Source of the DNA: a virus
Strand: one strand, 5' to 3'
Virus record (IMG/VR): IMGVR_UViG_3300031578_000012
DNA: 64,000 nt
Under the pieces are notes generated by a model. It did not search any database, was not told where the DNA came from, and was given only the letters and a program-made list of their open reading frames with translations. The translations under genes and the position numbers were made by a program. The first letter of the stretch is position 1. Each line of letters opens with the position of its first letter. Positions 42,333 to 63,972 of this stretch are shown piece after piece.

Positions 42333-43006
42333 TAAATTTTGTAGCAAATGCACAAATACCGGTACGTAATCGTAGCCGTAAGTGTCCCTATGTCGAGATC
42401 ATAGATCCTGGACATGGTGGTATTATCGATGGAAAATACGTAACGGCTCCTGATAAGATGTGGAAGCATCCTGGATTTACCTTCTATGAGGGGGTATTCA
42501 ACCGAGCTGTAGCCTGGAGGCATGCTCAGGATATGTTTGCTAACAATAGGAGCTACGAGATTGTAGTGTATAATAATCATGATATATCGAGACTTGAAAG
42601 AGTAGCCCGAGCTAAGGACATTCACAAGGAGGCCCTGAAAGCCGGATTCAAAACTTATTATCATTCTATACATGGTAATGCCTTTGGAGTACAGTCTGTG
42701 AAGGGGGTGGAGGTATATACATCACCCGGGACCACTAAATCGGATCCGGTGGCTACAGTTTATTATTACCAGTTAGCTAAGCTTGGATGGAATATGCGGC
42801 CATGTTTTCAAGATGGGGATCCGGATAAAGAGGCTAGATTTACAGTTTTAACTGAGACTCCAATGCCGGCCATTCTTTCCGAAACTGGGTTTTTCAGTAA
42901 TCCGGAAGAGGCTAAGCTGATGAGCGAATTATTTACGGTTAACCAGATTGCCTTGCTTATGACCCAAGCGGATCAGCGGGTGCAACAATTAAATCTATTA
43001 GGATGA
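42320..43006 (+). CDS. N-acetylmuramoyl-L-alanine amidase (endolysin)
   Basis: Amidase_3-type motifs IIDPGHGG, HSIHGNAF and ILSETGFFSNPEE. Confidence 0.85.
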   Translation: MDDLINFVANAQIPVRNRSRKCPYVEIIDPGHGGIIDGKYVTAPDKMWKHPGFTFYEGVFNRAVAWRHAQDMFANNRSYEIVVYNNHDISRLERVARAKDIHKEALKAGFKTYYHSIHGNAFGVQSVKGVEVYTSPGTTKSDPVATVYYYQLAKLGWNMRPCFQDGDPDKEARFTVLTETPMPAILSETGFFSNPEEAKLMSELFTVNQIALLMTQADQRVQQLNLLG

Positions 43007-43698
43007 AAAACAATATTATATTAATACTGCTAGTGATAGCCCTTACCACGGCTTTGGTATTTACTCTTGGAGACAGGCGGAGTATTAACAAGGACTATAA
43101 GAACCTGGAAGGCCTGCTAAACGATACCATTGAACATTATGAAGTCAGAACTCTGGCCGATGGTCAGGTAATTAATGAGCAAGCTCAGGTAATTACCACT
43201 AAAGATAATGCTTTAACAGCTGGTCTGGTAAAGCAGGAAGAACTTAAGGCTAGAAATTTGCGCAAAGATGTAACTATAGTTCGGCTGCAAAACGAGATTG
43301 CTGCCGTTAATTTGGAAGCAAATTATATTGATACTGTGACGGTGTATGATACTGTCATTAATAATACCGGGTATATAAGTGTTCCCAGATCTTTTAATTA
43401 CATTGATGAATGGTCCAGGATATTTGGTACGGTAAAAATTGACGGGGTAACAATTGATACACTCCGAGTCTTTAGTGAGCCAACTATATATATAGGTTAT
43501 CAACGGCAGAGCTTTTTCAAACCGCTAAATGCCGTAGTAATTACGGAGAATAAGAACCCTTATCTCCGTACAACCGGAATGCAGAATGTAGTCATACAAC
43601 AAAAGCCACCTATCTATAAACGACCATGGTGGCATAGAGGAGAAGGCTCGGCCGCAACAATAGGCGTACTGATATTACTGCGGAATTTGTTTAATTAA
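43003..43698 (+). CDS. Membrane-anchored protein, i-spanin-like lysis accessory candidate
   Basis: N-terminal TM IILILLVIALTTALVF and a C-terminal hydrophobic tail. ATGA overlap with the endolysin. Confidence 0.5.
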   Translation: MKNNIILILLVIALTTALVFTLGDRRSINKDYKNLEGLLNDTIEHYEVRTLADGQVINEQAQVITTKDNALTAGLVKQEELKARNLRKDVTIVRLQNEIAAVNLEANYIDTVTVYDTVINNTGYISVPRSFNYIDEWSRIFGTVKIDGVTIDTLRVFSEPTIYIGYQRQSFFKPLNAVVITENKNPYLRTTGMQNVVIQQKPPIYKRPWWHRGEGSAATIGVLILLRNLFN

Positions 43699-63078: not shown

Positions 63079-63097
63079 AGTTTCTGGTTTAAATGAG

Positions 63098-63188
63098 GGC
63101 AGAAGGGGGGATTCGAACCCCCGGGTAGTAATTACTACTCCAGATCCAGTAGGAAAAGCCAGAAACCTACTGGCTATTTTACTTCCGC
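63098..63188 (-). ncRNA. 91-nt tRNA-like element TL7 with G3-U70 acceptor stem and non-canonical core
   Basis: Acceptor GCGGAAG/CUUCUGC (G3-U70), T-arm GGGGG-UUCGAAU-CCCCC and discriminator C. The core forms hairpins GCCAG-UAGGUUU-CUGGC and GUAGU-AAUU-ACUAC, but I find no standard D or anticodon arm. Confidence 0.55.
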
Positions 63189-63338
63189 CTACCATAATAT
63201 CGTCCCCGCCGAAGCGGGGGCCTGACTATGCAGCTACCTTGTGGCTCCATACAGGACTTAATTGAACAACTTTGCCAGTTATTCCTCAGTGATTTCAATT
63301 CGTGTTGTACTCTGCATGCTGTCAAAACATTCAGCCCC
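63189..63338 (-). ncRNA. ssrA: tmRNA coding piece (5' GGGGCUG, P2 5' strand, tag frame, UUCG-capped hairpin); 3' boundary uncertain
   Basis: RNA: GGGGCUGAAUGUUUUGACAGCAUGCAGAG...CUGGCAAAGUUGUUCAAUUAAGUCCUGUAUGGAGCCACAAGGUAGCUGCAUAG-UCAGG-CCCCGC-UUCG-GCGGGG. The candidate tag frame at 63276..63226 ends ...SHKVAA-stop. Confidence 0.75.
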
Positions 63339-63585
63339 GTAAGATACGATCTGGGGGTACGCCCAGGAGAAGCCTACCACGTATGGTAACCCGGCTCCCA
63401 GGACCCCAGATCGCGAGTTCTTACAAGAGGGGAGGAAAATTCTAGTCTAAGCACCTATCATTTACGCTCCTCAACGTATGATTTATGGTACTACTAGAAT
63501 CATCCCTCAAGACCATTGCCGTAAAACACCCCTTGGTCGCAAAAGCGTCCGCAGGGCTTGCGGTTGGATTTTTTATCATAAGTAG
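63339..63585 (-). ncRNA. 247-nt structured intervening segment between the tmRNA acceptor and coding pieces
   Basis: Hairpin 63549-63563 (CCGCA/UGCGG). A long rod at 63428-63511 (AUUCUAGU/ACUAGAAU plus GAGGG/CCCUC). A long rod at 63348-63412 (GAUCUGGGG/CCCCAGAUC, capped by UACCA-UACG-UGGUA). Confidence 0.6.
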
Positions 63586-63650
63586 TGGAGCTGCGGGGCT
63601 TCGAACCCCGGTCCAAACATGCTTTCCTTCACGAATATAACGAAATCAAA
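63586..63650 (-). ncRNA. ssrA: tmRNA acceptor piece (P2 3' strand, GGAC, T-arm, CAGCUCC-A 3' acceptor strand); 5' boundary uncertain
   Basis: RNA: UUUGAUUUCGUUAUAUUCGUGAAGGAAAGCAUGUUUGGAC-CGGGG-UUCGAAG-CCCCG-CAGCUCC-A. It pairs with the GGGGCUG and the three P2 segments of the coding piece downstream. Confidence 0.75.
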
Positions 63651-63670
63651 GAACGTATTTGTTAGAAATA

Positions 63671-63678
63671 TATACTAA
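63671..63678 (-). promoter_or_regulatory. TTAGTATA box upstream of the tmRNA acceptor piece
   Basis: Variant of the AGTATT box, 29 nt upstream of the first P2-pairing nucleotides. Confidence 0.35.
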
Positions 63679-63808
63679 ATATCTAACAAAAATAAAATTG
63701 GTCGCGTAGTTTATCTGTTCCCATCTTGTCTTATAAGAACGTCTTCTATGCAAGAGCAGACCGGCTATACTGATTACTCATACCCTAGCCTAATGATATG
63801 CACCTTTG

Positions 63809-63892
63809 ATGCAATGAAAGGATTCGAACCTTTGACCTGAAGCACGTTCTATGCCGCGCGGCAACCGCTCTATCCAACTGAGCTACATTGCA
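63809..63892 (-). tRNA. 84-nt tRNA-like gene with canonical acceptor, D- and T-arms but no recognisable anticodon arm
   Basis: UGCAAUG-UA-GCUC-AGUUGGAUA-GAGC-G-[27 nt GUUGCCGCGCGGCAUAGAACGUGCUUC]-AGGUC-AAAGG-UUCGAAU-CCUUU-CAUUGCA-U. The 27-nt centre does not form a 5-bp/7-nt-loop arm. Confidence 0.5.
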
Positions 63893-63899
63893 TACCTTG

Positions 63900-63972
63900 T
63901 AGCGGGGACAGGAGTCGAACCTGCAGTCGAAAGCTTATGAAGCTCTTGAGTTACCATTACTTCCACCCCGCA
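63900..63972 (-). tRNA. tRNA with anticodon CAU (Met, or Ile2 type), 73 nt, CCA not encoded
   Basis: Acceptor UGCGGGG/CCCCGCU (U1-U72 mismatch), anticodon arm AGAGC-UUCAUAA-GCUUU, variable CGACU and T-arm GCAGG-UUCGACU-CCUGU. The D-stem is weak. Confidence 0.75.

Follow-up and report, generated by a model that had tools for sequence, protein, structure and literature searches.

Does the minus strand at positions 63189-63658 of a viral DNA, the IMG/VR record IMGVR_UViG_3300031578_000012, encode a transfer-messenger RNA (tmRNA), the RNA that rescues stalled ribosomes, in two pieces and in permuted gene order? An original prediction, made from the letters of this stretch of 64,000 nucleotides (nt; hereafter the window), had read the locus in this way. 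In the computational analysis presented here, the observation was confirmed: the locus is a real circularly permuted two-piece tmRNA gene, as observed in its gene order, its helices, its tag frame, the covariation and partner-specific pairing of the two pieces, and a tRNA-like domain of Bacteroidota type. Judging from sequence and comparative analyses, it probably specifies a functional, circularly permuted two-piece tmRNA (ssrA), a reading to which we give a probability of about 85%.

Both halves of the gene are located on the minus strand, the acceptor (3') half upstream and the coding (5') half downstream, with 247 nt between them. The acceptor piece (63586-63658), which is the 3' half of the tRNA-like domain, was delimited by sequence, by alignment to the Rfam model RF04321 (tmRNA_permuted) and by RNAcofold, and contains the 3' strands of helices P2c, P2b and P2a, a GGAC motif, the T-arm, the acceptor 3' strand CAGCUCC and the discriminator A63586. 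It reads ...GCAUGUUUGGAC-CGGGG-UUCGAAG-CCCCG-CAGCUCC-A and ends at 63586; the T-arm CGGGG-UUCGAAG-CCCCG occupies 63594-63610 (same three lines of evidence), and CCA is not encoded after A63586, the DNA going on as CUA. The probable 5' limit of this piece, 63658, was set where conservation with the closest relative (contig L106, described below) begins, at ATACGTTCTTTGATTTCGTT. The coding piece (63189-63338; sequence, ARAGORN, RF04321 and RNAcofold) comprises the tmRNA 5' half, the tag frame and a 3' hairpin. It starts with GGGGCUGAAUGUUUUGACAGC, reads GGGGCUGAAUGUUUUGACAGCAUGCAG from 63338, and holds the acceptor 5' strand GGGGCUG, a D-loop analogue with UUUUGAC and the 5' strands of P2a, P2b and P2c, followed by the tag reading frame (63226-63276; ARAGORN tag and L106 frame). 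The latter begins at a GGC resume codon in the context AAUAACU-GGC and has 16 codons, encoding GKVVQLSPVWSHKVAA with VAA at its end, before a UAG stop codon. Just past the stop lies the hairpin CCCCGC-UUCG-GCGGGG (63204-63219; sequence and RNAcofold), and the 3' limit of the coding piece, 63189, is provisionally placed at the start of the next tRNA-like element. The 5' end at 63338, the upstream 3' tRNA-like end at 63586, the frame and the hairpin are all found on the minus strand where the original prediction had put them, and the frame and resume codon, which it had offered as its own inference, correspond to the tag that ARAGORN gives.

Two dedicated detection tools recognized the locus. 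ARAGORN, whose use had been advised with the prediction, called a permuted tmRNA (tmRNA*) at 63135-63677 with the tag GKVVQLSPVWSHKVAA, and called no tmRNA when applied to 89 unrelated phage loci. In a local search, RF04321 matched 63226-63644 over the full model (positions 1-213 of 213) with 44.9 bits and E = 2e-7; the alignment carries a 247-nt insert where the model has about 30 nt, and CGGGG-UUCGAAG-CCCCG, AAUGUUUUGAC and UUGGAC (the T-arm, the D-loop analogue and the GGAC before the T-arm) are shared with the consensus. When the 64 kb were scanned for a T-arm followed by an acceptor strand able to pair with GGGGCUG, one match was obtained (0.02 expected), and it is upstream of the 5' half. 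A chance match is ruled out by the E-value, the absence of calls in the unrelated loci and this single occurrence. Membership in the alphaproteobacterial, betaproteobacterial or cyanobacterial two-piece lineages was also rejected, as the lineage-specific models RF01849, RF01850 and RF01851 scored 12.5, 10.6 and 10.4 bits at the window against cut-offs of 50, 84 and 70, respectively, and the relatives were likewise well below the betaproteobacterial cut-off. The standard tmRNA model RF00023 had no match in the region at E values up to 10. The standard and lineage-specific models, with which an Infernal search had been proposed for checking the prediction, failed; the full-length match is to the merged permuted model, at a score below its cut-off (weighed further below).

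The two pieces fit each other closely. When the 73-nt acceptor piece (63658-63586) and the 150-nt coding piece (63338-63189) were folded together by RNAcofold, the predicted P1 helix with its G3-U70 pair and the three nested P2 helices were recovered exactly: P1 of 7 bp joins 63587-63593 with 63332-63338 (GGGGCUG/CAGCUCC) and includes G63336-U63589, which is G3-U70; P2a (7 bp) joins 63616-63622 with 63314-63320, P2b (7 bp) 63630-63636 with 63298-63304, and P2c (8 bp) 63641-63648 with 63290-63297. The T-arm is also formed in the dimer, which has a free energy of -79.0 kcal/mol compared with -56.1 kcal/mol for the pieces alone, a gain of 22.9 kcal/mol. Pseudoknots, with PK1 preceding the tag and PK2-4 following it, are typical of tmRNA, although not universal. 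Here, only 13 nt separate the end of P2c from the resume codon, and a single hairpin follows the stop codon before the tRNA-like element, so that there is no room for PK1 or PK2-4.

Covariation was examined in an alignment of 24 diverse family members, with P1, the T-arm and P2a counted and 500 shuffles as the background. Paired cells made up 91.0% (81.5 +/- 1.0% in shuffles), and cells changed on both sides numbered 47 compared with 14.9, a value as high being reached in none of the 500 shuffles; the covariation score was 0.255 versus 0.076, again reached by 0 of 500. Shifting the partner by one to three columns reduced pairing to 41-56%. P1, including the G-U pair, is invariant in the 24 sequences, and in the T-stem, both sides have changed at three of the five pairs, 99% of cells being paired. 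The distal P2 helices are too different in sequence to be aligned by MAFFT across the family, and therefore cognate and swapped partners were compared by their RNAduplex energies. Across 26 genes, cognate P2 partners had a mean of -17.5 kcal/mol and random re-pairing -12.5 +/- 0.56 kcal/mol, with none of 10,000 permutations reaching the cognate value; the window's own two pieces are the top-ranked partners of each other (-24.0 versus a mean of -11.7). It follows from the partner swap that the two pieces co-evolve, as expected of an RNA working as a base-paired pair.

The window copy belongs to a widespread family of permuted genes in Bacteroidota phages. A scan of IMG/VR with a DNA pattern for the 5' half yielded 26 loci, of which ARAGORN called 10 permuted and nine standard tmRNA genes with Bacteroidota tags such as GENNYALAA; reading of the sequences added permuted genes among the remaining loci, and the total by script was 14 permuted of 26. 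A metagenome scan, with a pattern specific to a short distance between the 5' end and GGCAA, found at least 120 loci, among them at least 57 permuted by script. Together, the two collections contain at least 44 non-redundant permuted genes with at least 30 distinct tags; among the matches listed, 22 of 30 distinct tags end in AA and six in VA. The RF04321 cut-off was passed by 17 tested relatives (50.2-71.6 bits), and the crAss-like genome cr60_1 scored 40.3 bits. The betaproteobacterial model gave relatives 38-46 bits against its cut-off of 84, confined to model positions ~64-180, which correspond to the tRNA-like domain. Relatives are often found directly after or before tRNA genes, which fits with maturation by tRNA-processing enzymes.

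Among the matches listed, the closest relative is L106 (IMGVR_UViG_3300031673_011701), which has the leader ATACGTTCTTTGATTTCGTT in common with the window. Its tag GKVRQLIPAIQHRIAA and the window tag GKVVQLSPVWSHKVAA both have 16 codons; synonymous changes are seen at codons for Leu and Ala. P2a is AGCUUAU/GUAAGUU in L106 and AGCAUGC/GCAUGUU in the window, which amounts to three compensated pairs, and two more compensated pairs are found in the T-stem. The two-piece reading of the original prediction thus has behind it detection by ARAGORN and RF04321 as well as compensatory changes and a kept tag frame in relatives. Other ways of looking for near relatives gave none: the exact 29-mer of T-arm and acceptor was absent from IMG/VR, blastn of the locus against deposited phages gave no match, and the downstream 237-amino-acid (aa) protein and the adjacent exonuclease had no close relatives in IMG/VR. 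None of the 80 IMG/VR loci from an alignment-based exonuclease scan had a tmRNA; exonuclease homologues with 59-62% identity (P0005, P0008, P0011) came from phages with an 18-tRNA array or without RNA genes, none with a tmRNA, and no homologue between 62 and 100% identity was present in a set of 5.8 billion proteins.

The tRNA-like domain is of the type used by Bacteroidota hosts. One-piece Bacteroidota genes from the same scans have the 5' sequence GGGGCUGA..GGUUUUGACAGC or GGGGCUGAC.GGUUUUGACAGC, as in the phage family, and the two groups also have in common the resume context AACUGGC with Gly as the first codon (AAUAACU-GGC of the window matches AACUGGCGAA), the 3' end GUUUGGAC-stem-UUCGA..-stem-CAGCUCCA and the absence of an encoded CCA, so that both tRNA-like halves are near identical. 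In contrast, the one-piece genes (tag GENNYALAA) have the normal order, a length of ~390-400 nt, PK1-PK4 and another tag, and their resume codon lies ~95 nt from the 5' end, compared with 57-66 nt in the phage family. The 31-nt 3' tRNA-like sequence of the window, with two N in the loop, occurs in at least 120 GTDB species genomes, virtually all of them Bacteroidota (Bacteroidales, Prolixibacteraceae, Marinilabiliaceae and others among the matches listed). These features suggest that the family arose by permutation from the one-piece tmRNA of Bacteroidota.

The best isolate matches of the exonuclease are all in Bacteroidota phages, namely the Bacteroides phages DAC15 and DAC17, crAss-like genomes and Cellulophaga phages. 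The portal protein has no homologue among 50,697 deposited phage records, and DNA polymerase, helicase and portal gave no host information. Bacteroidota-type promoters, which the original prediction had noted, were not borne out, as a simple promoter pattern had five matches in the window against 2.5 expected and was not enriched; this remark is not relied on here. The window comes from a novel phage, about 80 kb in size, whose host is most likely a member of Bacteroidota. No SmpB gene was detected in the phage DNA searched (the positive control was detected in L121), and therefore the RNA would have to use host SmpB.

A mechanism can be proposed in which every biochemical step is carried over, by analogy, from established two-piece tmRNAs. 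The locus would be transcribed from the minus strand together with the neighbouring tRNA genes, whose presence in the window and in relatives is compatible with tRNA-type processing. In the precursor, 63593-63587 would pair with GGGGCUG (63338-63332) and stack on the T-arm, giving a tRNA-like minihelix. RNase P would then cut 5' of G63338, the 3' end would be trimmed after A63586, with the non-encoded CCA added by the host CCA-adding enzyme, and the 247-nt spacer would be discarded. The 3' end of the coding piece could arise from its own hairpin, from an RNase P cut at the next tRNA-like element, or from both. Two products are expected, an acceptor RNA (73 nt) and a coding RNA (~150 nt), which P1 and the three P2 helices would keep joined. 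This complex would be charged with alanine by host alanyl-tRNA synthetase via G3-U70 and delivered to stalled ribosomes by host SmpB and EF-Tu; translation would restart at GGC and add the tag GKVVQLSPVWSHKVAA, which has an AA degron at its C terminus. The likely benefit for the phage is that ribosome rescue is kept running, or redirected, during infection.

Several points weigh against this picture. The support is computational throughout, and we infer transcription, processing and alanylation. The RF04321 score of 44.9 bits is below the gathering cut-off of 47, and the locus is absent from the gathering-threshold list; the shortfall may stem from the T-loop, from the 247-nt insert and from the D-loop analogue, which has a single G and lacks one base compared with that of most relatives. 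The hairpin past the tag has no U-run, and in most relatives its counterpart is an intrinsic terminator with a U-run. PK1 and PK2-4 are absent from the layout here and throughout the family, no dedicated pseudoknot prediction having been run, and PK1 is important in Escherichia coli tmRNA. The unusually long and strongly structured spacer could hinder P1 formation in the precursor. In addition, the other contigs of the same phage (L001-L006) are identical across the tmRNA and contribute no covariation, and therefore selection on the window copy rests on one close relative, L106. Finally, the search patterns fixed GGGGCTGA, TTTGACAG and GGCAA, so that the invariance at these sites and the GK or GN tag starts are partly by construction.

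Of the readings that compete with a functional tmRNA, the one that survives best, albeit as an improbable one, is that the RNA folds as proposed and serves chiefly as a decoy or modulator of host trans-translation, titrating SmpB or competing with host tmRNA. The need to engage host SmpB, the near-exact copying of the host-type tRNA-like domain and the missing pseudoknots would all suit such a role, and there is a precedent: mycobacteriophage DS6A carries a tmRNA-like RNA consisting of the tRNA-like domain only, which reportedly inhibits endogenous tmRNA in E. coli and has been proposed to work by decoy (PMC4131195, PMC11915505). DS6A resembles the window in having a phage-borne tmRNA-type gene but has no tag frame, whereas tag length and frame are kept between the window and L106 with synonymous changes, 28 of the 30 distinct tags among the matches listed end in degron-like AA or VA, and the resume-codon context is that of functional Bacteroidota tmRNA. 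A pure decoy needs none of these, which weakens the decoy reading.

Slightly less probable still is a decaying relic, that is, host tmRNA fragments gained by recombination, for example at a tmRNA-targeting attachment site, without a working RNA. It is true that tmRNA genes are common integration sites, that several IMG/VR matches to the 5' motif turned out to be normal host-type genes located at the ends of contigs, and that the window copy, sub-threshold in RF04321, combines the longest well-folded spacer of the set with a hairpin lacking a terminator U-run. However, the P2 5' strand runs almost straight into the resume codon, which is not the arrangement of a host tmRNA piece; each phage has P2 strands of its own, which nevertheless complement each other within the gene; and the window copy retains every helix as well as an open tag frame with VAA at its end. 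Moreover, dozens of unrelated contigs show this architecture, among them those of crAss-like phages and of one phage in culture. As for an ordinary one-piece tmRNA with its 3' end downstream and a coincidental tRNA-like half upstream, an idea for which no support was found and which arises only from the T-arm at 63097-63188, its probability is negligible and the one-piece gene is excluded, since the only T-arm and acceptor of the 64 kb that match precede the 5' half, the acceptor strand CUUCUGCC of the downstream element cannot pair with GGGGCUG (as had been predicted), RF00023 does not match here, and the ~40 nt from the stop codon to the next tRNA-like element are too few for PK2-4 plus a returning P2 strand.

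The spacer between the two pieces (63339-63585, 247 nt, minus strand; characterized by folding) sets this copy of the gene apart. It folds into three strong stem-loop domains with a minimum free energy (MFE) of -94.3 kcal/mol (z = -4.66, 200 shuffles); per nucleotide, no other spacer compared folds as stably. Among the matches listed, family spacers range from 20 to 266 nt with a median of 72. No Rfam family, ribozymes included, matched the spacer at E values up to 10, and there was no likeness to the spacers of relatives apart from a short 5'-end motif in common with L106. A 45-aa open reading frame (ORF) within it (63442-63579) is not kept in L106, and therefore the spacer is treated as non-coding. 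It might simply be discarded, help in processing or be an RNA product of its own.

Spacers also vary elsewhere in the family. L101 and L119 have near-identical tmRNA pieces and the same tag, GKQINVNFAASRKLAA, with spacers of 41 and 194 nt, respectively, which shows that ~150 nt were recently gained or lost within the spacer. In some crAss-like phages (L114, L140, L168 and L218, and the RefSeq genomes cr56_1 and cr113_1, matches H45 and H46), the pieces are ~600 nt apart, and an annotated endonuclease gene lies under the match spanning both pieces; the intervening segment seems to have taken in a whole gene. The spacers of L107, L126, L206, L208, L112 and L116, although otherwise different, have a common motif of ~30-40 nt near the 5' end, of the type CGTTAACCCGTCGCGTTAG, which could form a hairpin and may serve as a processing signal.

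Two-piece tmRNA as such is not new. It was reportedly described in Alphaproteobacteria (Caulobacter) by Keiler, Shapiro and Williams in 2000, and betaproteobacterial and cyanobacterial two-piece lineages are said to have been described by Sharkady and Williams in 2004. The gene in the window has in common with these lineages and with marine phage two-piece genes the permuted order, the G3-U70 pair and the AA end of the tag, and the cutting of a precursor by tRNA-processing enzymes into acceptor and coding RNAs joined by P1 and P2 is what we propose here as well. It differs in that the lineage models fail, the resume codon is GGC (Gly) rather than the GCA (Ala) of the RF04321 consensus, CCA is not encoded and pseudoknots are lacking. 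RF04321 was created in Rfam 15 as a merged model from the alpha, beta and cyano families and covers their shared tRNA-like domain (PMC11915505). Among 133 distinct phage tmRNAs, ARAGORN suggested 53 to be two-piece, mostly in marine phages, and marine copies of the type found in OM43 phage Melnitz are reported to group with the alphaproteobacterial lineage (PMC9004378).

Members of the present family are already in public records. When a gut member was used as the blastn query, 11 RefSeq crAss-like genomes were matched, of which five (cr60_1, cr114_1, cr52_1, cr125_1 and cr115_1) annotate the region as 'transfer-messenger RNA, SsrA'; it is unannotated in cr53_1. The isolate Chryseobacterium phage MA9V-3 (PV245944) also has a permuted gene, with the tag GNVIDINKYVAKLEVAA. 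The context given in the original prediction, to which no such gene was known in a phage with Bacteroidota-type promoters, therefore overstated the novelty. The crAss-like and MA9V-3 genes have the same order of acceptor piece, spacer and coding piece, a Bacteroidota-type tRNA-like domain without pseudoknots, and short tags with a Gly start and an AA end; they are often flanked by tRNA genes and are seen as permuted by RF04321 or ARAGORN. They differ in having their own P2 strands, tags and spacers and in belonging to Crassvirales or, for the isolate, to an unclassified phage, whereas the window comes from a phage without a detectable portal homologue and has a spacer of 247 nt (median 72) and a sub-cut-off RF04321 score.

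Cellulophaga phage Calle is a flavobacterial phage with a reported tmRNA (PMC8776804). Like the window's phage, it has a phage-borne tmRNA, a Bacteroidota host, an exonuclease homologue and a RyR-domain gene, but its tmRNA is one-piece and in standard order, GGGGGCGACUGGUUUUGACAGG ... GGACGAGGGUUCGAUUCCCUCCGCCUCCA. The ARAGORN call in Calle_1 (L123, 42950-43309) has an unusually long tag, AQIEANMEAVNAILNLEVAVGV, and the annotated tmRNA at 43002-43361 is ~50 nt off that call. The tmRNA database holds 79 phage sequences and, under Bacteroidota, 48 'permuted' genes typed as alpha, beta or cyano (PMC11915505); these entries may include the present phage family. A full-text literature search found no paper describing a permuted tmRNA lineage of Bacteroidota phages, only mentions in methods, and tmRNA is not mentioned in the main crAss-like genome survey.

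Given that two-piece tmRNAs and phage copies have been published and that the family is in public records, what may be new is the pseudoknot-free, Bacteroidota-derived phage lineage, together with the large and highly structured spacer of this copy. We see even odds that the family is a further two-piece lineage that arose independently from Bacteroidota one-piece tmRNA, is carried by phages, lacks pseudoknots and has spacers of 20 to ~600 nt (here stably folded and possibly a product of its own), and that, in the literature searched, has not been described as a lineage. If true, this would be one more independent permutation of the tmRNA gene. Taken alone, the gene in the window is a sound annotation that Rfam misses at its curated threshold. 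More broadly, Bacteroidota phages, including the abundant crAss-like phages of the gut, commonly carry a minimal permuted tmRNA of host type with its own tag, which bears on how stalled ribosomes are handled and proteins tagged in infection by these phages, and structural and functional studies could draw on the family for a tmRNA that naturally lacks pseudoknots. Since the tRNA-like domain copies the host type, it could also be used as a host-prediction marker for uncultured phages.

The tmRNA is part of one RNA gene cluster downstream of the exonuclease gene, which consists of a tRNA-Met, an odd tRNA, a leader of ~150 nt and the tmRNA itself. Directly downstream of the coding piece lies a 92-nt tRNA-like element (63097-63188, minus strand; ARAGORN, Rfam tRNA and fold), which ARAGORN calls tRNA-Glu(ttc) with odd geometry and which scores 25.3 bits with the Rfam tRNA model against a cut-off of 29. 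It folds into an 8-bp acceptor stem, a normal T-arm, a variable-arm hairpin and an 8-bp stem with a 12-nt loop, without a normal D-arm (MFE -41 kcal/mol, z = -4.1). The 276-aa ORF called by gene callers overlaps part of the tmRNA, and its start covers this element. The element may provide the RNase P site that fixes the 3' end of the coding piece; a tRNA directly follows the coding piece in crAss-like relatives as well. ARAGORN tRNAs of 91 nt, some with undetermined anticodons, are found shortly before the exonuclease homologue of three IMG/VR contigs (L009 2437-2527, L011 1192-1282 and L070 4385-4475) and resemble the over-long element of the window.

The other two tRNA genes, both on the minus strand and found by ARAGORN and Rfam, are tRNA-Met(cat) (63899-63972) and, at 63808-63892, a tRNA whose anticodon loop has 17 nt. 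The latter has good acceptor, D- and T-arms (47.5 bits in Rfam), its anticodon is not named by ARAGORN, and its anticodon loop holds the GC-rich palindrome GCCGCGCGGC. In the otherwise identical contig L006, there is a G-to-T change in its D-arm. In L087-L092, whose exonuclease is 59-62% identical to that of the window, 18 tRNA genes come right after the exonuclease (for example, L087 6364-8321 and 8733-10145), followed by a TROVE (Ro60-like) gene, and no tmRNA is present.

Two further observations concern crAss-like members of the family. In the variants L102, L150 and L242, the T-arm is GGGGC-UAUCGUAU-GCCCC, ~30-45 nt upstream of the coding piece, with a T-loop of 8 nt without the usual UUCGA, the rest of the permuted tmRNA being intact. 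Gut contigs from crAss-like phages have, within a few kb of the permuted tmRNA, further RNAs that pass the Rfam cut-offs, namely RAGATH-9, RAGATH-20 and a Hatchet ribozyme (L133 3565-3737 and 5163-5311; L272 67-224 and 1159-1260).

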